NCBI RefSeq assembly: GCF_036321535.1
Contig: NC_087436.1
Span: forward strand, 19,966,001 to 20,030,000
Length of the DNA: 64,000 nucleotides
Origin: Camelus dromedarius
Taxonomy: Eukaryota
Direction of reading: 5' to 3'
Below are positions 33,218 to 62,000 of the stretch, in pieces. The notes below the pieces were generated by a model. The model searched no databases. It had not been told where the DNA came from and saw only the letters and a program-made list of their open reading frames with translations. The position numbers were made by a program, and so were the translations under genes. The stretch's first letter is position 1. Every line of letters begins with the position of its first letter.

Positions 33218-33781
33218 AGCCCCGTGCTGTTGTCATCACTGAGTCTGTGTGACGAACGTTCCTCATTAAGGATTTTTCACAACCCAGAACACAGGGCAAA
33301 ACCTTTTTTCATAAAAGGCAGTGAGAGCGTATTTCCTTTCAAGAGATCAAACCATTTCTTTTTGCATTGGAATCTGAGCTTCAGTCTTCTTGACTTACTG
33401 TCTGGTGGCCAGAGCCTACATTTCTGGAACTTTAATGTGCAGCTCAACCATCACTCCTTCAACATATATTTATGGAGAACCAGCTGTATACTGGGCACGG
33501 TGCTGAACCACGCTATCAACCTGCTGGAGAGGTGGGTCGGCTGAGCGTTAGTGAGGAAGGAGAGAAAATACTGGAGACTTGACTAAAATGGAAATCCACA
33601 ACTTTCAGGCATGGCCTTCATAGAGAAGGGAAATGAGCAGGAAGCCCAGAGGTTACTTGGTCTTGTTTGCAGTCATTGTTCAGAAGGGAGCCTTTGCTGA
33701 AGTCCTAAATGTTGACTAAACTGAAATTTGTTCACGTTCCCTTATTTATTCCTCATGATGCTTTTTGTTCTTTTGGCCCAG

Positions 33782-33919
33782 AAACAGAAAAGATAGTCCT
33801 AGAGGCAGGAAATGGGTTGCCATCCTGGAAATTCAACGACCAGCTTTTTCCCTGTGACGTATGTGGGAAAGTGTTCGGCCGACAGCAGACGTTGTCCCGG
33901 CATCTCTCCCTGCACACAG
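33782..33919 (+). CDS. ZNF827: ZNF827 internal coding exon: (E)TEKIVLEAGNGLPSWKFNDQLFPCDVCGKVFGRQQTLSRHLSLHT, one C2H2 finger
   Basis: Pyrimidine tract plus CAG acceptor ending 33781; G|GTGAGT donor at 33920; 138 nt, phase 1-1; peptide recognised as ZNF827. Confidence 0.93.
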
Positions 33920-48156: not shown

Positions 48157-48334
48157 GGTTCGAATGCGTTTTTTGCAACTTTGTCTGCAAGACGAAGAAC
48201 ATGTTTGAGCGCCATCTGCAGATACACCTCATCACCCGGATGTTTGAGTGTGACGTGTGCCACAAGTTCATGAAGACCCCTGAACAGCTGCTGGAGCATA
48301 AGAAATGCCACACTGTCCCCACCGGTGGGCTCAA
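48157..48334 (+). CDS. ZNF827: ZNF827 coding exon: GFECVFCNFVCKTKNMFERHLQIHLITRMFECDVCHKFMKTPEQLLEHKKCHTVPTGGL
   Basis: ggtcctttcag acceptor; AA|GTAAGG donor; 178 nt, phase 1-2; two C2H2 fingers. Confidence 0.94.
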
Positions 48335-49961
48335 GTAAGGAAAGCAAGTACAGAACCTTTTACTGTGTTGTTATTAAACACCCTTTCCCCAGCCCTGCCC
48401 CGTCCCCCACCTGAAGGTTTTGGGGGTCTTGGGGAGGGGGGTTGGCATGGGGGGAGTTAGGCACCTCAGCTGCCTTTAGCTGGAGAGGAATAGACCTGTC
48501 TCCCAGGGGTCAGCAGATGTCAGTAGGAAAGTGCATTCCACAAATATGCCGGGATTCCGGCAAGCAAGACGACTCGTTGAAGCAACTCGGCATGAGCACG
48601 CAAGGGTAGACTCATCCTCCGCTGCTTGAGTTTTGTCCAGACTTGATTTTAAGGGACTTGGGGTTAGGGTCCTCACGTGTAAATTATTATGCTGTCACTG
48701 CACTTCACCATCTCTGTTTTTTCAGATGATTTGCCACAAGTCTTCTAAATAAGCATTACAACTACTCCATCCACACCCACCCACAAATATTGGATCTTTT
48801 GTCAGTTTGAACAGGCAGGAGGCAACTTTTTTTTTTTTATGCAAAGATCATGTGCCTCCTGTCTTCCTGCAAAGATGCTTCATGCCTTCCCAGGAACTGG
48901 AATCGGGATCTCCCTGGTGTAGCCTTCATGAGATCTGACATTTCTGGGCACATGTTAGTCACAGATCCCCAAAGACCTAGACACCAAGCATCATCATTAA
49001 CCAATATTTGCAAGGAGCCCTCTGGTCTGAAGTGAGACCCATCCGTTATTAACGAATGCACTGTGTGTCTGGCTTGATAATAGGTGCTAAAGGGCAAACA
49101 AAGAATAAAACATAATTTCCACTCTTGGGAAACGTTCGTCCGAACGCTACCAGAGTTTAATCCCAGTGCTTCTAAAATCAGAGTCCCAGTTCTCAAGGCG
49201 CTCACGGGCTAGTAAAGAGATAGAAGCATGTGTCACTGGGGACAGAAACACACATCAATTTCCAGGCCTAATTTTTCATGTTTAGCTAAGATGATCATGT
49301 AATTAAAAGAATGAAACATGACGTTTTACTTAAGAAAAAAAAATTATTTTTGAACATTTTTATCTTTGAAACTCACAACTTGCCAGAGAGGTGGCATGAC
49401 TCCTCTGAATGGCCGAGGGGTGGAGAGACCCAGAGGGAGGTTGGGAGTCAAGTGGGGGGTGGGGGGCAAGTCAGGGTGGACTCCCCAGGCTCCTGCCTGG
49501 TCGGGGGGGGGCCTCCTCAAAAACTTGCCCAAGGAGCAGCACCTACTGTTGGATCCCATTTTATTTCACTCTGGGGAGAGGGGCGATTAGGTGGGAGGGG
49601 TGGGGAAGAGAAGAAGAATGGGGGGAGGGGTGGTTAATGCCTAGCAAGAGCTTATTTGGGAATTTGATTTGTTTTGTTCCCACTGTCCCTTTCTAAACAT
49701 TTGTATACTTTTACCCTAAAAAAAAAAAAGAGCCATGTATTTATGTGGTTGGACTAGCACCCATCCCTCTTCCCAGTAGCCCAGTCACACCCATTAATTG
49801 CGGCCCCGGCCAGTTGTGGCTTCGCCAGTTAGGTCCCCTTTCCTTTGGGGACCTCAGGAGTCCGGAGCCTCCGGCCCACTGGGGAGAATGCACAGTGAAC
49901 GCTGATGCTTTTGCGGATACAGACACTTCCCGTGCGGTGCTAATGGTCCCCTATGTAATAG

Positions 49962-50028
49962 TTTATGTTCTAGGATGACCAAGTAGAAGAATACTTTGAA
50001 AAAATTGCTAATGCCTTCTGGCTATACA
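49962..50028 (+). CDS. ZNF827: ZNF827 alternative stop-containing exon (67 nt), encodes (N)LCSRMTK* with TAG at 49984-49986
   Basis: gctaat branch-like motif; taatag acceptor; ACA|GTGAGT donor at 50029; translation matches a ZNF827 isoform C-terminus as I recall it. Confidence 0.75.
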
Positions 50029-50312
50029 GTGAGTCTTTGTTTTGTTTTGTTTTGTTTTTCCCTTTGCCATATCAGAGAATTAATTTGCCTGAGAGAGTGT
50101 CTTTACGATAACTAACGGGAGCACGGAAAAACCCTTAGCACTTTGCCTGAGCCGCGAAAGAAAGATTGAGCCGTGGGTCACAGAAATGTCCTTAAAATGA
50201 AACAGACCGCCGATGTCTAAATTGCTTTTCTGTGATGGAACTGCTTGTACTCTATATCCTGTTCATAATGCAGATCAAATAAGATTATACTATTATTTTT
50301 CTTTTGCCGTAG

Positions 50313-50345
50313 CTCAGGACAGTGGTGAGTTTCAGACTCCTCTAG
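50313..50345 (+). CDS. ZNF827: ZNF827 alternative small exon: 33-nt form encodes (N)SGQW*; 12-nt form (50313-50324) has no stop
   Basis: tttttcttttgccgtag acceptor; two donors, TG|GTGAGT at 50325 and AG|GTAAGG at 50346; NSGQW matches a ZNF827 isoform end as I recall it. Confidence 0.8.
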   Translation, partial: LRTVVSFRLL

Positions 50346-51797
50346 GTAAGGCCCAGCTTGGCGTAGGGGTTGTGTGTGCACCTGACCTGGGAATGGGCTT
50401 TATATTTCTCTCGTGTGCACTCTTCTGTGAGCTGAGGTTCCGAGGCTAACGGCGGGCTTGGCGCTGAGGAGCAGTGCACGGTGCACTTGGTGTGTTGGGC
50501 TCTGCTGGACACCTCTCCAAACCCTCCGAGGACAGTTCACTCGTGGGCCCTGCCCTGCAGGTGCCAAGCGAGAGCCGAGGCCGCCACTTTTGCACTTGCC
50601 TTCTTTTTGTAAAGAGAGCACACACGCCACAGCTATCATATCAGCCACCGACTCGAGCCTGGCAGCTTCTGCGAGCGCAGCTCAGCAGAACTTGCAGAAA
50701 CATGCCCTCCCTGCCTGCCTCGCCCCTTTGGACAGCCAGTGGGGCTTGGGGGTAGCGTAGCCTCACTGCGTAGAATGGAGAGGCCCAGGCTTGGTCCCAG
50801 CGCACAGCTAGCCTAGAGCCCGATAAGGTGACAGAGCCGGGACCAAAATCAGCCCTTATGGAATCTGCCTAAATTACGTGTACAGACCAGTCCCGTAGTG
50901 AATCAGTACCCATCATGTGCTGAGTCCTCTACCGAGCACTGCAGAGAATGCAGAAGAAACGGGAGATACGGTCCTGCCCAATGAGAATTTACGATCCCCT
51001 TGGATTATTATTTCCATGATGTAATAAGGCACTCATAATGTCTTCAAGCTCCAGATAGCAGCTGTCCCCCTTCCTCCTGAGTCCCTCATTCGTAGGTGGG
51101 CTGGTGGGTGGGCCTCCTTCTCCTGAGCCCAGGTCCTGGTCCTCACCTCCCTTCCCTATGGAGACCCAGTGCTGCAGGAGCCAGGTTTGACCAGTACAGA
51201 TCTCTGTGTATACACGCACTCCCACACACAGTGACACACACAGGCCTTCTCATCCTAACCACCCTTTAATAAGCACGACTCTGACCCCTACGACTTTCTG
51301 TTTGCTGGAGGTAGCTCTCCCCACTATAAGCTGTTCTTTAAAACTCTTAGCCTTTCTGCGTGTGCTTGGTGTGGTGCATGAAAAGTCGATTCTTTGTGTT
51401 GCTCCCATCTTGAGGGGAGGTCGTGAGGTTTAGACCTCGGCTGTGTCCAGTGGGGAGCGGGGAGGGCTCCGAGGGGCGGGGTGGGGAGGACGGAGGGGAG
51501 CAACAGCTTATCTGGTCCTGGCACTGTCTCTGCTCCCCTTCCTGAGGGCTGGCGTCCGCTCTTGCAGCCAGGAGACCCCCGAGCAGGCCCGAGGGAAGGC
51601 TCTGTCGGCAACCAGAGCCTAAGAGGGTCTTCTTCATCCCTCCGGAGGCGGCAGGGCTGGGCTGGACAGGGGGCAGGCCAGGCCTCAGGCTGGGGAGGGC
51701 GTCCAGAGGGAAGGCTGGTGAGGAGGGTAGCAACCGGGGGACCGCAGAGCCCGCGCGGCTGACCCTCCCTGTCCTTGCTTGCCCCCTCCCCCGGCAG

Positions 51798-52626
51798 GTG
51801 CCCATTCTGCATTTATTCCACCAACCGCCCCGCCGCCATGGAGTGCCACCTCAAGACCCACTACAAGATGGAGTACAAGTGCCGGATCTGCCAGACGGTG
51901 AAGGCCAACCAGCTGGAGCTGGAGACGCACACCCGCGAGCATCGCCTCGGCAACCACTACAAGTGCGACCAGTGCGGCTACCTGTCCAAGACCGCCAACA
52001 AGCTCATCGAGCACGTGCGCGTGCACACCGGGGAGCGGCCCTTCCACTGTGACCAGTGCAGCTACAGCTGCAAACGCAAGGACAATCTCAACCTGCACAA
52101 GAAGCTGAAGCACGCCCCGCGCCAGACCTTCAGCTGCGAAGAGTGCCTGTTCAAGACCACGCACCCTTTCGTCTTCAGCCGCCACGTCAAGAAGCACCAG
52201 AGCGCGGACTGCCCCGAGGAGGACAAGAAGGGTCCGAGCCCGGCCCCCGCCAAGGACGCCGCCGGCCCTGGGGCCCCGCTCCTCGTCGTCGGGAGCTCCC
52301 GCCACCTCCTGTCTCCCCTGTCGGTCATGTCCGCCTCCCAGGCTCTGCAGACCGTGGCCCTGTCGGCCGTCGGCAGCGGCGGGGGCGGCTCCGAGCCCAG
52401 CCTGGCACTCAAGGCCTTGCCCTTGAACGGCTCCCCTTTGCGCTTCGACAAGTACCGGAACTCGGATTTTGCCCATCTCATTCCCTTGACCATGTTGTAC
52501 CCCAGGAACCAGCTGGATCTCACATTCCACCCTCCCCGACCTCAGACTGCGCCGCCCAGCATCCCCTCCCCGAAACACTCCTTCCTCGCCTATCTCGGAC
52601 TAAGAGAAAGAGCGGAGACTGTCTGA
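51798..52626 (+). CDS. ZNF827: ZNF827 terminal exon coding segment: CPFCIYS...RERAETV*, five C2H2 fingers plus a C-terminal tail (long isoform only)
   Basis: ccccctcccccggcag acceptor; phase 2 joins exon 48334 in frame (AA+G=Lys); 275 sense codons; TGERP linker; strong GC3 bias. Confidence 0.88.
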
Positions 52627-55600
52627 GGGCAGCCAGGCTCTGTACCAAAAACCAAGAGACAGACAAAAACAAACAAAAACAAAACCCACAAAACTTAAAC
52701 ACAACCCCAGCAGGTGTATGTTGCTGCAAAACCTACAGACTCCCATGGGTCTGAACCACGTGTACTGTATATCTTTAGTAAGGAATAGAGAATTGGCTCT
52801 GTGTGTATACCTATTGCATTGACCTGAAAGCTGCTTTATCCAATCTTCAGAGAGGTGACCTACTGCGCCCGTCTACCTTCAGAGGCATGCCTCCCCAGCC
52901 ACCCACTCTCACTCTCAGCCCTCCTCGGTCCTTTTATCTGAAAGGAAATTTGTCTCGTTAAACCCTGAAGGGAGTGTCCTTACTAGCAATCAGCCCTTGT
53001 AAGCTTCTACACCGGTGCATTTTATTTTCCGTTGGGTGAATGTGGTGAGTGGGCGTTTGTGGATTTGGAAAGAGACCTCCATGTGTCCTGTGCCGGGACA
53101 TTTGCACATTCTTTGTACTGGCTTCTTTCACAGCGATGAACATTCTCTCTCCCCCCCCCCACCCCCACCCCCCAGGACTTTCATCCACACCAGTCACTTC
53201 CCTGAGCTCCCTCATTACCTTCCTCTATTTTATGGCTACAGAGTGGTAGGGCCTGGTGCTTAGTCGATGAAGGAACGGTGGACATCCTCAGTGCTGCCTG
53301 AGATTTCCCACAGAGTCCTGGAGACCATGTGCTCCGATCTCTGGTCATGAAGACACTAGCCATCAAGAGCCCTCGTGTGGAAGAAATGTCTCGCAGCACT
53401 GCAGCCCGCACCACAAAACTCCAGTGTGTTTTGTGTGTGTGTCCATACGTATGCAGTGTGTATGCTACACACACACACAGTGCATCATTTTTTAAGGGCA
53501 GATTATATATATATATATGATGTATTAAGTCATGGTTACCATTTGTTTGCAGGAAAAGAAAAATTGTATGAGTGAAAAATTTTATGGTTGATAAATCCAG
53601 CCAAGGAGATTAAAAGGGGTTTGGATAAATTCTGGGTATAAATGCTCAGACTAAAAAAAAAAAGAAAAAAGAAAAAAAAAAAAAGAAACGGCAGTTTTGC
53701 ACAGTGCTTTGGTCTTGCACTAGTTTTTGTTTCTCATCTGCAAAAAAGAAATAAGTAAAATAAAAGGAAGAAAATGTACCTTTTTTATGGAATGAGTAGA
53801 CTGTATGTTTGAAACTTTTGTCACAAACTCTTTGACATATAACGACCCAACAAAAAGGTGCTGTTTAGTCCTACGGTTCAGTTTATACCCCTGAGACGTT
53901 TCCATTGTGTTTGCGGATTGTCTGGCTATGGCGGTATTCTCCATGTTATTAATAATTCTGTATTCCATTTTGTTAACGCCTGGTAGACATAACCTGCTAG
54001 GAGGCTAACTTTATACTTATTTAAAGCTCTTATTTTGTGGTCATTAAAATGGCAACTTATGTGCAGCACTTTATTGCAGCAAGAAGCAGGTGCGGGTGGG
54101 TTGCATAGCCCCTTTGCTGTTCTTAAAAAGCAATGGGTATGTAAGAAGAAGAAAAGGAACAGAACCTTTGGCTAAATATGTTAATGGCTTGTGTTTTTAA
54201 GACAACAGGATTTCCAGGATGAAACAGGCTGAAAGAACAGGAAAAAAAAAATGTGCTTTGTATAACAATGGGAAGTTCGGAATATAAAAGTTTTATCTAT
54301 TATTTATCTATCGAAGAACTGGTGTATGGGAGGAATGCTTTCTTACTGCGTTGCTGGTTTCCATCATGTGTTATCCTAGAGTTGGGATTTTTTTTTCCGT
54401 CTGTTTCACCAGGGGAAAATAAAAGCGTCCCTAATTTTCTTCCTCTAGTCAGTTTGCTTCACTGAAAGCTCCCCCTTGAAACTGGTACCGTTCTACCGGA
54501 AGCCAGAAGTCTGTAACTTCTGTCCACACCATGGTCCTCCCCCGTACCCACCCTTCTTCCCCCAGACTTAGCAGGTGTGCTAACACTTCCCTTGGCCAGT
54601 CATCCAGCCCTGGCAAAGCTGTTTACACTAAGGAGATGTCCCCGGGGGCAGGGAGGCTGAGCCAGCTAGGGCGGGAAGCTCCCGCACCTTTGGTCATCTT
54701 CCAGCAGAGACATTTGTTCTTGGCCACGTTTGACACGTCATTCAACGTTGCCCTCGTGATGTCTCGGTAAAAGACACTATAGACAGTTACAGACAATACA
54801 CTCCAAGAATACTGGGCTTCTGGGTTGGTTGGTTTGTTTTTTTTTTTAAAGGCATGTCTTTATCCCCATTTAATGGAGAATGTGCCACTTGGCTAATCTT
54901 GTGCTTTCAAAATTACAAGTTCAGTGATAACAGGAAAGGAGGCCACAGTGATCCCACAGGGGCTGGCAGAGAGGCGTGAGCACCAGCAGGTTAAAAACCT
55001 GAAGGGTGGCCCTGGCAATTAGGACTGCAGACTTTACAGTGTGCCACTTGTGCAATACAAGGTCCTAGGGTGAAAGCTGCAAGATCAAGAGGGGCGTTGG
55101 AGGGAGACGGTTACCGCTCAGATGCTTGCCACTGAACTTGTATTTGAATGACTTAGTTATGCTTAATGTAATTGGGCAACTTTTTTTAGCACTTTGGAAA
55201 GAGTCATCAGTCTTTCTGGTAAATTATAAAAGTTTTCTGAGTGAGAAAAGGTGTGTTTGGAGTTTGTTTGACTTTTTATATTATTATTGTTATTAATAAA
55301 GAAAAATCTACAGCATTTTTCAGATTCCACCGAGGTAATATGTACCCCTGAATTTGGTTTGCAGTTTGATACTCAGGGAAGGATGTATTCCATAGATATC
55401 CTTTCCGTGTAAAACACTAACATCTTTGAGATATTCACCTGCCAACTAACTTCAATTCTGTTTTCACTATGCATTCTTCAATGAAAGCTAGCTTATTTTT
55501 CCATATAGTAATGCAGTTAGAGTTCTCAGAACTTTCTTCTATCCTTTTTTTTAACTCCTCATATTATGTTCAGATGATCATACTGTCAAGGTTTGTGTAC

Positions 55601-55770
55601 ATTACTGAAAATTTGTATTGTATAAAGCTTTTTTGCATTACAAGGCTGTACAGGGTCATTTTGACAGTAACTGGTATATTCCTTTGCATCTTATGTTGCA
55701 TTGCCAATTTCTAGTGTATCCAGTTTGGAAGTATAATATACTCTAATTAAAAAGAAAAAAGGTTGGCTAT
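52627..55770 (+). other. ZNF827: 3' UTR of ZNF827 (end approximate)
   Basis: Follows the stop codon; no recognisable interspersed repeats; several miRNA seed matches; ends at ATTAAA followed by a U/GU-rich tract. Confidence 0.7.
55746..55751 (+). terminator. Probable distal polyadenylation signal (ATTAAA)
   Basis: TGTA motifs upstream and a T/GT-rich element at about 55773-55850; other AATAAA hexamers at 53759, 54418 and 55295. Confidence 0.6.
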
Positions 55771-56449: not shown

Positions 56450-58919
56450 CTAAATCAGTTTTAAAGTTCTGTCCATCAGAGAACTTCCCCAGGAATTCTT
56501 GACTTGGTGAAAAATAGAAAGCAGCAAAAGAGAATGTTTTGGTTCACATCTTGCATTATACGTATTCACGTTATTATTCACATTCACATTATACGTAGAA
56601 CGTCCTTGGCACGTTGCAAGAAATTATGAACCGCTTCACTCTAACGTTTAAAAAGATCAACTTGACTTTTTATAAAATGACGTTGACATAGGAGCAGCCC
56701 CTTTGAAAGTGGCCGGTGACTATTCAGACACCATTCTCCCCTTTGTGTTTTCATCCAATAACTATCTTCAGGTGATTGACTCGAGTTCTCTCACCTGATT
56801 CAAATACTCAGGTTGTTTGGGGATGGCTAGTATTTATTGAAAACCTTAAAACAAGTCAGACTGCTTTATTGTTTGCATAGCTTCTCATTTGGTATAGAGT
56901 TTTCTCCTTCAATTCCACACCCACCTCACATTTTCCCTTTGGTTGAGAAAAGCCAGAAATAGAAACTATAATCATCAGATTGGTACTTGTTTCCCCTGTT
57001 AATGGGCCTCCAGTGACATTGAGGAGTGGCTGGGACGGGAGCCGTCCGTGACAGAGCAGACCCCATCCTCCTCCACCTTCACTACCTAGAGGGCACTGCA
57101 GTGTGGACCCGGCCATCTCCAAGCCAGCCCTGGGGCCCCTGTTAGAATTCAATCCAAGATCATACATACTTTTCCTACTGTTGTGTTAAATAAACGGATG
57201 GTAAGCTTAAGACTCAAGGCCATGTTTTCTATAATGTGTCTACAGCTGATTGGCCCATTTGGTGTACATTAGAAACCGCCCCTGACCACTTCCCAGAGTC
57301 GCAGTGCTGGTCACAGGAGAACAAGGAGAAATATCAACATTTGATGAGCACTGGTATCTCCTTACCCACAGCCGGAAGCATCACATTAGATCTCTTGCTT
57401 GCCCAAGGTCACGTGGGGGCTCACGAAGGCTTTGAAGGGCATGACTCTTTCTTTGCCAAAACACAGAATCAAGTCACCTCGATGCTTTCAGACCTTGGGG
57501 AGGAGCTCATACAAAAGGGGAGGGAGGGACGGAAGGGGATGACAGCCGAGTGATTTCATCTGTTTGAAGTGGGACATAAGGGATCAGGGGCTCATACAAA
57601 ATAAACAAACTTTCATCGGAGAATGTAAAACTAGACTTCTCCCCAACAGTGCCTTAGAACCTGTGAGCAAAATCACAAGATCGAAGAATGCTCTTGGGAT
57701 TCAGATCCCAATCCAAGGAGCCATCAACCACAGATAGTCCGGAGACCCCAGCCAACACTCTTCCTTACGCGTCCGTCTCAAAACAGAAGACTCACACAAA
57801 ACGAGGTTCATTTTGCAAGTAACTCCAACTCACTAAGAAAGCAAATGCCCATAAAGCTGGCCCTGGGGTAAGTAAGTGTGGTGACTCTGGGACCGTGGGG
57901 CCCGTCCTTCCCTTGACCGCGGTCTGCATGGTTAGGGACCAGGACAGCTTCTGTACGGGATAGCAGTTCTCCTATGCAGCATCCTTTCTTGATAGCTGGA
58001 TCTGTAAAATAGACGAATGCAAGTCCCGCTCATGTTGGTAGGAGTGGCAAAGGAGAAAAGGAAAAGCCATTGTTGTATCTCCTGGGGATTCCTTTTCGAC
58101 AGAGTTAAGGAATGTATTAGCTAATTCGTTCTTAGTTTTCAACAGACTTACAGAACTGAAACAGAGAATCCATCTCAATTAACACTTTGAAATTATTGTC
58201 CCCCATGGCAGTCCCTACAGGTGGCTTTCTACTCTATTTAGTAAGAATATCTGGGTGACAGATAACATTTTTCCACCACAAAAGACATTACCGTGGAGTC
58301 AGATCACCTGAGCTTAAAGTCTGACTCAGAAGCATCTTATGAGAAGAAGGATTGAACTAGACAATCTCAAAGACCCCTTCCCACCCTAGCAGATAACATG
58401 TAATACACGACGACTCCATGACTCTTTCCAAACAAGCAAGTCAGCTTTTTGAAACAAGAGTGGTCCCAAAGCAGAATCCCTGCAAGGCAGTTATAGCAAA
58501 AATGGCACCTCAACATTTTCAAGTCACGACAGACCTAAGAGAGAAAAAAAAAAAAATGGCTGAAAATATTTGTTTGCCCACTTCAGAGTTTGGGAGGTCT
58601 AAAATTTGTCTCTTTTGATTAAACACTAAGTCACCATGCTTGGATTGCCTGCAGTCATCTTAAGAGTGGCTTAAATGTATTTTACCAAACCGTGGGTACT
58701 TAATCTGGTTAGATGAGTTAGGAGGTAGCCAGGTGGGGCAGGAAAGGTTTTGCCTTTTCCATCTTCATCTCTCCGACTGTGCCCCCTCCTTTTCCCACCA
58801 CCTGACTGCTTCCAGCCTTCTCCAGGTGACTGGTGCAATTGTGACTGCTAAGCTCTCTGCCCCCCATGTTTCAAATGTTTTCTGGAGAAAATCAAAAGGT
58901 TCCTTTTACAGGTAATGAA

Positions 58920-58996
58920 GGGGAGGCTATAGCTCAGTGGTAGAGCATATGCTTCGCATGCACAAAGTGCTGGGCTCAATCCCCAGTACCTCCATT

Positions 58997-59038
<42 letters not shown>

Positions 59039-59064
59039 TAAATAAATAAGTCTTTAAAAAAAAA
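58920..59064 (+). mobile_element. tRNA-derived SINE (camelid-type) with (CA)n in the tail
   Basis: tagctcagtggtagagc A box; 12-bp TSD acaggtaatgaa (58908-58919, 59065-59076); (CA)18 at 59001-59036. Confidence 0.92.
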
Positions 59065-62000
59065 ACAGGTAATGAAAGACACTTTAGTTTTAATACAGTA
59101 CAAGAATATACTAAATATTGTTATTCTGCCGCTTGTTTAGAAAGACTCTCCGCCCATGAACTCTGAGCACATTAGGAAAGTTCTCAGGCACTTCCATTGG
59201 ATGGAAGGGCTCCTTGTGTTTTACAAAAACACAGGGAAATAACTGATCTACCTCCATCATCAGACAAGTAGGGCCAAAAGAGCAAACACTGGGCTGGGAC
59301 CAGGGTAATTTATCTAGCCATCCTCCAGCCTGAATTCCAGAATGATGTCTTTCCAATCTCAAAGGTTTCTAGATAGGAGACACCACCAACTGGCTTCAGT
59401 GTTCTCTTATTTTTATTTTAACAGCAATTCCTAATTAGCAGTCCACACACTTCTCAGTGTGTATAATAAAGGATCACCAAGCCCCTGTCCCATTATGTCC
59501 CACTTCAAATAGAATATGTGCTAGAACATTCTCCATGCAATGGGTTCGATCACCATTTGTAGTCTCTCTCTCGCTATCGCTCTCTCTTTTGTCTATTTTC
59601 TGGGTTCCCCTAAAAGGCTGAACCCTGAGATTTATTTTGGGAAGCAATTCCCGAAGCAAAAGTGGGAAACTAGAAAGAGTGAAGCAAATAAGAGTAAGAG
59701 GGGGAAGCCAATCCCAGAGGGCACGGGCGAGCTAGTCATTGCTGTGAACAACTGGGATGGAGTCCTTCTGGGCACCCTCATGAGAAGCAGTGTGAAGGTG
59801 TCTGAGAACTGAGAGCCCAAGGGAGAGAAGAAGGAAGAGGCTGGGGTAGCCACAGAGAGTGTTAACTCCCTCGCTCTTCCAGCTTTGCCCATGATTTGCA
59901 GCAGCTAAGTTGGCTTCCCCAGGCAGCCATGGAGGTGGCAAAGAAGCCAATGGTGCAGAAAGCAAGAGATGTTTGGTGAAGCTGAGGGGAGGTGCTGTCA
60001 ATCACCCCTGACCAGAGCTGGTTGCTACAGCAAAGACTAGAGTAAGAAGGTAAGTTTGGGAGATGCAGAACAATTGGTATCCGATAAAATGATATTTGGC
60101 ATGAATGTTGCTGTCACTTTAGCCTCCAAGCCAATGTGGGCTACACATCCAACCCAGTAGGTCAGCTTGTAGCTCTTCTGCTTCCCCTCAGTGGGAGGTG
60201 GGCAGAGACAAGGCAGTGATGGGTCCTGTTGCTAAGGAAGGAAAGAGGTGGCACAGGAGAAGCAGGTAAAGAAAGGCTCTCCCCTCGATGTGGCGGAGTC
60301 TCTTTACAGTCCTCCCTTCTTTGATTCCTCTAATGGGATTGAGCCCTTCTAGAACTTGATTAACGGGAAGTCACTTGACAGGGACATAGGCTGCCTCCCA
60401 CCTCAGAGAGCCTCCTTGACCAGGGAAAGCCACATGAGAGCCCAAATGAGACCGGGGCAAGGAGCCATCCCCCAGACTTCTGTGGCCAGCCTCAAGCTCA
60501 GGCTAAAGGCATCCTGGTGGCTCTCATTCGTCCCAGCTTACCACGAACAGGGTGTGACAAAGGGGTGGGCAGCCATCTAGGCTCATCTAGGAATAAAGAC
60601 ATTACATTTGCCTGGCATCTTCTTTGTACTTGTGTCTCCCACAGGAACCTGGAGCTGAACAGGGAGTTATCCGTCTTCATGGAAAACAGCCGATTGAAAA
60701 TTAAAGTGTTCAGGATATTCCACCTGTTTCTTTCCATCTCTAATCCACAACAGGCAGTTCCTCTACTAACGGAAGATTGGACTAAGCCTGGACTGATGGA
60801 TGGTTGCACAGAACATATCTATAAAGAATGCATAGAGGACATGCACCATGTGGCTATAAATGTACCAGACCTGCGTTTGTGTGAGAGCATCCAGAAGGAA
60901 GACCATAAATTCTTATTATTCTGGGATTCACAACATTAAAGGATAATATTTTTCATTTTTCCTTTGTGCTGCTGAAAATAAATACAGGTTGATGAAAGAG
61001 TAACATATGAAAAGAATAATTAAGGGTCAAAGAAATCTCATTAATTAGAATATCCCCTTGCCTGTCTTTTCTACAATTAAATAAATGGGCATAGAAATGG
61101 GTCATCATCATACTATCAGTCAGAACCCCATCTCTTTATGCCATCAGACAATAGACAAAATAGCAGCAATAAGTGAGTATTCGGGAGTCTTGGTTACACA
61201 GCGAGGCCACGTGTCTTTTTAAATGGGCCGAATAATAATTTCCTGCCAGTGAAGGGCTTTACAATTTGGCTTGTCTGCCTGTGAGGGAGGCTAAATTGTA
61301 TATGTGTATGATTTTGTATCGCAGGATCCTGTCTTTAAGAAAAGGTTGGACGAGTTCAGGGTGGAGTGGCCATAGGCAGGATCCTGTCTTTCAATATCAG
61401 CTTCTCTCCTTACCCATAACCCACTGCCTCCCTCGCTCTTATTCTCTGCACCTGTTCTCCACAACCCAAAGTTTCCACCCCCACTGCCATGTTCGAAAGC
61501 AAGTCCAAGCCTATTCAACTCATGACTTCTCCCTCCAACCCCCAGCCTCCCCTTTCACTCTCTCCTTTTCATTCATTATTTAATGAGCAACAAATATGTG
61601 GAAAGCCATGCGCGGGCAGCTGGTGAGAAATGGAGACAAATAAGATACATTTCCTAGCTTTTAAGAAGTTTACCAACAGAAGAAATGTGTGTTTGAGCAA
61701 ATGCATTACAATACCAAGGGGAAAATACATATAAATTGCTGTGGAAATATTGAATAAAGAGTGACGACTTCCAACGGGGGTGACAGGAGGCTTTATGGGC
61801 GATGTAACAAGCCAACTGTAGTCGACAGGACGAGTAGGATTCTCAGAGGCAGGGAAAGTGGGGAGGGCACTCCAGATTGGGAGAACAGCTTGAGGAAAAG
61901 CAAGAAGGTGAGAAATTGCATGGTGGGTTCTGTTGTGCTAGAAGATTCTAATGAAACCAAACAAAGCCAGCTTGTGTAGGGCTTCCAATCCCTCGTGAAG

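Follow-up and report, generated by a model that had tools for sequence, protein, structure and literature searches.

An ancestral fourteen-finger end of ZNF827 in the dromedary genome and a candidate splice choice against nine-finger forms

The last coding exon and its finger array

The window, a stretch of 64,000 nucleotides of Camelus dromedarius (assembly GCF_036321535.1, contig NC_087436.1, positions 19,966,001 to 20,030,000, renumbered here from 1), carries ZNF827 exons, in the order of the gene, on its + strand, to which all gene features described below belong. The gene is single-copy in this genome, the other six of the seven matches being finger-only with 32-44% identity, and none of these seven, a number to be taken as a lower bound, is a retrocopy recording the junction discussed here. 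The last constitutive internal exon (48157-48334, 178 nt, phase 2 at its end) encodes fingers 8 and 9 and has a tblastn match of 100% over 60 aa to a bat long isoform. It is separated by a last intron of 3,463 nt from a pyrimidine-rich acceptor whose CAG ends at 51797, and the exon beginning at 51798 has a coding part (51798-52626) made of fingers 10-14 and a 142-aa tail, which is 3' UTR in the stop-cassette isoforms. The 3' UTR proper runs from 52627 to 55760, a candidate end, with candidate polyadenylation hexamers at 53759, 54418, 55295 and 55746. A first-pass annotation of this DNA had described a 275-codon frame with five C2H2 fingers, coding-like GC3 and a phase matching that of exon 48157-48334, and each of these points held. 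The frame encodes 275 aa at 51799-52623 and closes with the TGA at 52624-52626, it contains five C2H2 patterns, and three of the seven Pfam families listed exceed the cut-off, all of them C2H2 types. The GC content at the three codon positions is 0.57, 0.46 and 0.88, against a GC3 of 0.47 in the 825 nt 3' of the frame and of 0.60 in the 825 nt 5' of it; an open frame survived in 27 of 20,000 base shuffles. Moreover, joining 48334 to 51798 gives an in-frame read-through free of stops. We are practically certain that this exon is protein-coding and under selection.

The same annotation had called the five fingers a coding module; they are not a separate one. Fingers 10-14 lie at 51799-51861, 51880-51942, 51964-52026, 52048-52113 and 52135-52197 (block 51799-52197), and the spacing between fingers 9 and 10 is eight residues, the other tandem linkers having six to eight. 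By their spacing, fingers 8-14 are one seven-finger tandem array, since the finger 9-10 linker falls within the tandem range and fingers 10-14 simply continue fingers 8-9. A TGERP linker is found only between fingers 12 and 13, and a canonical R/D/N recognition helix only in finger 13, which has it in common with finger 2. The look of a canonical DNA reader is limited to fingers 12-13, and because the other fingers are atypical, DNA, RNA and protein are all possible predicted partners. An AlphaFold2 model, built on an alignment of only 4 rows, has five helices, with pLDDT values of 64-83 at residues 21-130 and of 50.6 overall. In the C-terminal tail (52198-52623) pLDDT is below 50 at residues 137-275 of that same four-row model, and the tail is probably disordered; it nevertheless has three conserved short motifs, kept in 231, 259 and 263 of the 272 proteins that carry the finger-12 core. 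No solved structure of the finger block was present among the 60 PDB sequences listed of 68, which are generic arrays such as ZNF568 and CTCF.

Two further features of the fingers may be mentioned. Finger 12 has a CxxCG loop (51964-51978), as do fingers 1, 4 and 6; we take this loop to be the pattern of cereblon-glue degrons, and finger libraries designed from the short reference would miss the one in finger 12. The finger 4 exon lies at 33780-33919. Models with 13 fingers are common in reptiles, amphibians and sharks, and finger 4 is missing from the models P0105 and P0351, which suggests that the finger 4 exon may be a second alternative exon upstream. An internal duplication, with fingers 12-14 derived from fingers 1-3, was considered as well: the triplet score was 35, second of 45 comparisons (mean 9.7, sd 13.0), and the duplication is unsupported because that score is driven by the one RKDNL helix common to both triplets.

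We then asked how far back the exon can be followed. A homologue search among longer proteins gave 252 matches at E <= 1e-20 from 2,929 candidates, and the best 120, which were listed, all align over the entire 275 aa of the query, with identities of 69-94%. Most are named zinc finger protein 827, the remainder being hypothetical or unnamed, and they come from mammals, birds, reptiles, amphibians, lungfish, sharks and a chimaera. All 120 have the five fingers past the junction, reached directly in 108, with a four-residue insertion in three and by other joins in nine; those of full length measure about 1,280-1,360 aa and contain 13-14 fingers. Across 15 full-length vertebrate rows, 107 of the 133 columns of fingers 10-14 are invariant, compared with 77/82 in fingers 1-3, 38/49 in fingers 8-9 and 63/361 in the long linker. 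The mean identity to mouse is 0.95 in fingers 10-14, level with the 0.95 of fingers 8-9, and linkers are lower (0.65-0.74). The camel finger block is identical to that of two Old World monkeys (133/133) and agrees with mouse at 131 positions, with Xenopus tropicalis at 128 and with elephant shark at 120; over the six mammals compared, the range is 129-133. A search of 50%-identity clusters found the whole module in unnamed fish-like proteins and otherwise generic arrays, so that an invertebrate origin of the module gained no candidate. As judged from the intact frame together with conservation from sharks to mammals, this exon is the ancestral last coding exon of ZNF827, held under strong constraint. 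The first-pass annotation had inferred a longer isoform carrying an extra nucleic-acid-binding array; the long isoform does exist, as described below, whereas "extra" has to be withdrawn, the exon being the ancestral end of the gene and no addition to it. Some models that consist of this exon only bear misleading names: one in a bat (P0507, EPQ06887.1) is called RE1-silencing transcription factor A, and two in the whale shark (P0239 and P0241) are called zinc finger protein 64-like and 22-like.

Exon choice in the last intron

The last intron offers several ways of ending the protein directly after finger 9. The simplest is to leave the 5' splice site GTAAGG (48335-48340) unused, which adds one K before a stop and gives a short form ending in GGLK. 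Selection is not required to explain this ending, because any GTAA donor in phase 2 reads as K and a stop. In the same region, an ATTAAA at 48373-48378, 38 nt into the intron and followed by a G/T-rich stretch, is a possible intronic polyadenylation site that might give the K-stop form. Two cassettes carry stops of their own. Cassette A1 (49962-50028, 67 nt, or 55 nt from the alternative acceptor 49974; its donor at 50029 is placed by consensus) encodes the tail NLCSRMTK or KMTK, with its stop 42 nt 5' of the last junction. Cassette A2 with its long donor (50313-50345, 33 nt) encodes the tail NSGQW, with its stop 17 nt 5' of the last junction, and its alternative acceptor at 50318 changes the tail to KTVVSFRLL. 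The two short tails that the first-pass annotation had named for human ZNF827 are therefore both encoded here, LCSRMTK from acceptor 49962 and NSGQW from acceptor 50313. Database records confirm the short tails; the NSGQW ending is found in human (TrEMBL G5E9Z1; a 731-aa record). When A1 and A2 are included together, the stop lies 54-75 nt from the last junction. Long A2 leaves the last exon in frame behind its TGA, and read-through of this stop was set aside, its context being TGA-G, unlike the leaky TGA-CTAG.

Cassette A2 can also be spliced at a short donor at 50325, which reduces it to an in-frame microexon of 12 nt (50313-50324). The stop is thereby removed and all 14 fingers are kept; the linker between fingers 9 and 10 grows from 8 to 12 residues, and the array is otherwise unaffected. 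In WT1, a linker between two fingers is lengthened by a few residues through an alternative choice of 5' splice site (+KTS/-KTS), with changed binding and a fixed ratio of the two forms that is needed. ZNF827 resembles that system in having an in-frame linker insertion, and differs from it in that the insertion comes from a separate 12-nt microexon and that the form is minor in mouse.

A tally of 418 proteins contained 244 direct long forms, 8 long forms with the microexon, 54 K-stop forms (from frogs to mammals), 39 NSGQW-stop forms, 9 A1-type forms, 5 KTVVSFRLL-stop forms, 6 that stop at GGL, 33 lacking the anchor and 20 of other kinds, including a long form that the pattern failed to catch. 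This sample was picked by searching with the long module, so it is biased and gives no isoform frequency. The NSGQW-stop tail is found in platypus, echidna and placentals, and the A1-type tail in four marsupials, bats and several placentals. One turtle record, the Pelodiscus sinensis model P0105 (XP_014424842.1), continues from finger 9 with NGGQW, a hint that cassette A2 may be older than mammals. The six records ending at GGL are from birds and look like projections of a short reference.

We also looked for elements that might govern the choice. A 22-nt inverted repeat (49367-49388 and 50313-50334) is complementary at 18 of 22 positions, its second arm starting at A2 and covering the short donor. 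RNA pairing that masks A2 was rejected as an explanation: the match count was reached by only 1 of 1,000 shuffles, but the duplex energy of -25.1 kcal/mol is unremarkable, weaker than that of several other sites, and 39 of 60 shuffles equalled the best site. A QKI-type motif at 50111, 83 nt 3' of A1, and an RBFOX hexamer at 51375 are presumably candidate regulators.

A known parallel is REST, a C2H2 repressor truncated by a 16-nt exon lying between exons 3 and 4, in its last intron, as far as the accessible parts of the two sources describe it (PMC7235277, PMC5602094). ZNF827 and REST are not orthologues; in both, a small exon of the last intron brings in a stop and truncates a zinc-finger repressor. 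REST4 is a neural form, driven by SRRM4, that has lost a repression domain, whereas the short ZNF827 forms keep the NuRD motif, have their stop inside the cassettes, arise by several routes and have no neural difference marked in mouse. SRRM4 microexons have a UGC element near the 3' splice site, according to the part of PMC7235277 available to us. The ZNF827 microexon fits the class in size (12 nt, in a class of 3-27 nt) and has a TGC at -8, a trimer that carries little weight. In the accessible part of the mouse table (PMC7821500), its cluster is marked 'Excluded' and the brain-difference columns read FALSE, that is, neural-enriched inclusion was absent, and for this reason we do not class it as an SRRM4 neural microexon.

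Long and short forms in transcripts, databases and published work

The first-pass annotation had guessed that the longer isoform might already be annotated as a prediction, and it was right. An isoform of about 1,350 aa and 14 fingers is present in RefSeq and UniProt as predicted models from mammals, birds, reptiles, amphibians, lungfish and sharks. Examples are mouse XP_006531309.1 and TrEMBL A0A571BE87, rat A0A8I6AI01, green monkey XP_037848563 and Xenopus tropicalis XP_002938981.2, all of which have the same exon, frame, junction and C-terminus as the camel sequence, their orthologue. The nearest primate long records are those of the green monkey (XP_037848563) and the snub-nosed monkey (A0A2K6NJT5); among the cluster members listed there was no curated NP_ record and no human long record, most long records being XP_ or TrEMBL models. 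The long protein is already known in databases, as predictions, and has apparently been overlooked at the bench.

The prediction is borne out by spliced assemblies from three mammals. The form of 1,345-1,349 aa is encoded by 15 Logan contigs from mouse, the longest of 4,742 nt, by 8 from rat, none above 4,846 nt, and by 5 from green monkey, none above 6,458 nt. These lengths are too small for genomic DNA and point to spliced mRNA. NSGQW-stop forms are likewise found on Logan contigs of 3.7-5.2 kb (P0315, P0515, P0516, P0526, P0527). In addition, the segment 51798-55760 is present in whole or in part in 22 of the 24 runs listed, at least half of it in 20; four of those runs, all from one study, are recorded as RNA and hold 87-95% of its words. 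The exon is thus transcribed, but this is a measure of presence only that is blind to the junction. Altogether, we have high confidence that the long mRNA is made in mammals.

Splicing in mouse can be followed in the accessible part of supplement 2 of PMC7821500. There, the identical 12-nt exon has 33 reads and is entered as novel, inserted within a direct junction that was already annotated. The 28-nt stop form is an annotated one, with 27 of its 28 nt equal to 50318-50345. Both exons passed the read filter and fall into 'Excluded' clusters, and that part of the table marks neither as differing in brain, muscle, heart or adrenal; the 33-nt and 67-nt forms are absent from it. The table favours a direct junction that is commonly used relative to the 12-nt and 28-nt forms. 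As for human, the qPCR primers given in the part of PMC10933417 available to us comprise a reverse primer equal to 51865-51885 at 21 of 21 nt and a forward primer ending in A2, so that a human mRNA joins A2 to the last exon. At the protein level, no peptides of the exon and no ribosome evidence were found in the supplements searched, which included part of PMC5630039, PMC10713452 and PMC10908861. Two marker peptides had been put forward for such a search; TANKLIEHVR contains a missed cleavage, and the second is absent from the tryptic peptides common to two monkeys, which include TTHPFVFSR, ANQLELETHTR, HSFLAYLGLR and DNLNLHK.

The protein studied so far is the short one. In the accessible part of Yang et al. 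2024 (PMC10933417), ZNF827 is described as having nine fingers in two clusters, a commercial cDNA was used, the nine-finger recombinant protein binds ssDNA and does not bind dsDNA, and it gave a partial rescue of a knockdown by 3' UTR siRNA. Partial rescue is a lead only, because it can have many ordinary causes. The long form has in common with this nine-finger protein the gene, fingers 1-9 and the N-terminal RRK NuRD motif, and differs from it in having 14 fingers and the completed seven-finger array. The same paper and PMC11306022, so far as available, link ZNF827 to NuRD recruitment, ALT telomeres, ATR signalling and EMT splicing. Protein isoforms go unmentioned in the accessible parts of PMC11306022, PMC11602157 and PMC7657652, and a full-text literature search, whose coverage of subscription papers was small, retrieved no study of a long isoform or of ZNF827 with 14 fingers.

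A candidate splice switch and its alternatives

We propose, with moderate confidence, that the last intron of ZNF827 sets the ancestral 14-finger end against nine-finger forms. Direct splicing of 48334 to 51798 gives the protein of about 1,350 aa and 14 fingers, a step shown by the sequence, the conservation and the spliced assemblies. Inclusion of A1 or of long-donor A2, or an unused donor, ends the frame directly behind finger 9, so that the last exon becomes 3' UTR, as the sequence and the database models show, with predicted products of about 1,080 aa and nine fingers. The limit for junction-dependent NMD is 50-55 nt. With stops only 17-42 nt before the last junction, the cassette mRNAs should by this rule escape it, and they would then be translated into a stable nine-finger protein. 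Fingers 1-3 and the N-terminal RRK motif that binds NuRD would be retained in both proteins, and the five additional fingers and tail of the long form probably widen its specificity for nucleic acids or partners. With the 12-nt microexon there would be a minor third state, in which nothing changes but a looser linker between fingers 9 and 10. It seems reasonably probable that both protein classes are functional and differ in activity; regulation of the isoform ratio by tissue or state is plausible, and we put it forward tentatively. Doubtful, although worth stating, is the stronger proposal that the 14-finger protein is a main isoform in many mammalian cells, that fingers 8-14 give it targets beyond those of the nine-finger reference, and that splicing thereby switches ZNF827 from a scaffold for ssDNA and NuRD to a factor that recruits NuRD to chosen targets, and back.

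If this stronger proposal is true, the cDNA-based biochemistry (no dsDNA binding, partial rescue) describes a truncated form, and coding variants in the last exon are being filed as 3' UTR variants. The present analysis adds the recognition of fingers 8-14 as one array of seven, a map of the cassettes whose stops cut it, and the discrepancy between the protein that is conserved and the one that has been studied. If the 14-finger form is abundant, a third of its fingers is left out of work with the nine-finger cDNA, the no-dsDNA-binding and partial-rescue results may merit re-examination, variants in 829 coding bases would be taken for UTR variants, and antibodies, primers and finger libraries derived from the short reference are isoform-blind.

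Among the alternatives, the one that survives best holds that the 14-finger protein is the sole product that matters, and that the short forms are minor by-products of splicing, which became the reference by accident and were projected onto other genomes. We think this unlikely. The 'Excluded' status of both small mouse exons (in the accessible part of PMC7821500), a K-stop ending explicable without selection, the six tail-less bird records ending at GGL, as expected from projection, and the fact that just one of the tallied shark records is a short model stopping behind finger 9 all speak for it. Against it stand an A2 tail that is the same from monotremes to placentals, with mouse and camel agreeing at 27 of 28 nt, and an A1 tail common to marsupials and placentals. 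Moreover, the short forms lie on transcript-sized Logan contigs, and the nine-finger protein binds ssDNA and partly rescues a knockdown, according to the part of PMC10933417 available to us.

Alternatively, the cassettes might serve dosage control: an mRNA with a 3' UTR of 4-6 kb would be degraded or poorly translated, and full-length ZNF827 would be lowered. Conserved stop exons often serve this end, the cassette stop is trailed by 829 nt of former coding exon plus about 3 kb of UTR, and inclusion of A1 and A2 together brings the stop into NMD range. The single-cassette stops nevertheless lie only 17-42 nt from the last junction, and the short mRNAs are abundant enough to be assembled and to be used as a qPCR target; we regard this explanation as distinctly improbable.

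A third account supposes that the exon is translated on its own within the short mRNAs, by re-initiation or from an internal promoter, starting at the in-frame ATG at 51838-51840. This ATG has full Kozak context, lies inside finger 10 and would open a four-finger ORF of 262 aa; it follows the A2 stop by 57 nt with no ATG between, the region 52001-52500 has a GC content of 0.66 and a CpG observed/expected ratio of 0.83, and stand-alone ORFs of 255-263 aa have been called in bats, frogs and the whale shark. Those calls are mechanical, though, and the Met sits at the hydrophobic core position of finger 10, where 12 of 266 proteins have Ile or Leu instead. Finger 10 is also conserved upstream of the Met (15 of 21 positions invariant), which only the spliced long form explains, and the five-species ORF catalogue had no ZNF827 entry in the 12 supplements searched. 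The stand-alone ORF is, in our opinion, very improbable. That the exon once was coding and is now decaying, mere UTR in mammals, as the nine fingers of the studied human protein (in the accessible part of PMC10933417) might suggest, has a negligible chance in view of the near-identical finger block of six mammals, the intact frame and the long spliced assemblies in three mammals.

A search of the window for structured RNAs against Rfam gave a single match, to a tRNA-like repeat. This element (58909-59075) begins with a tRNA-Ala-like match of 72 nt, continues with a CA run and an A-rich tail, and is flanked by direct repeats; it is a tRNA-derived SINE insertion and no tRNA gene.
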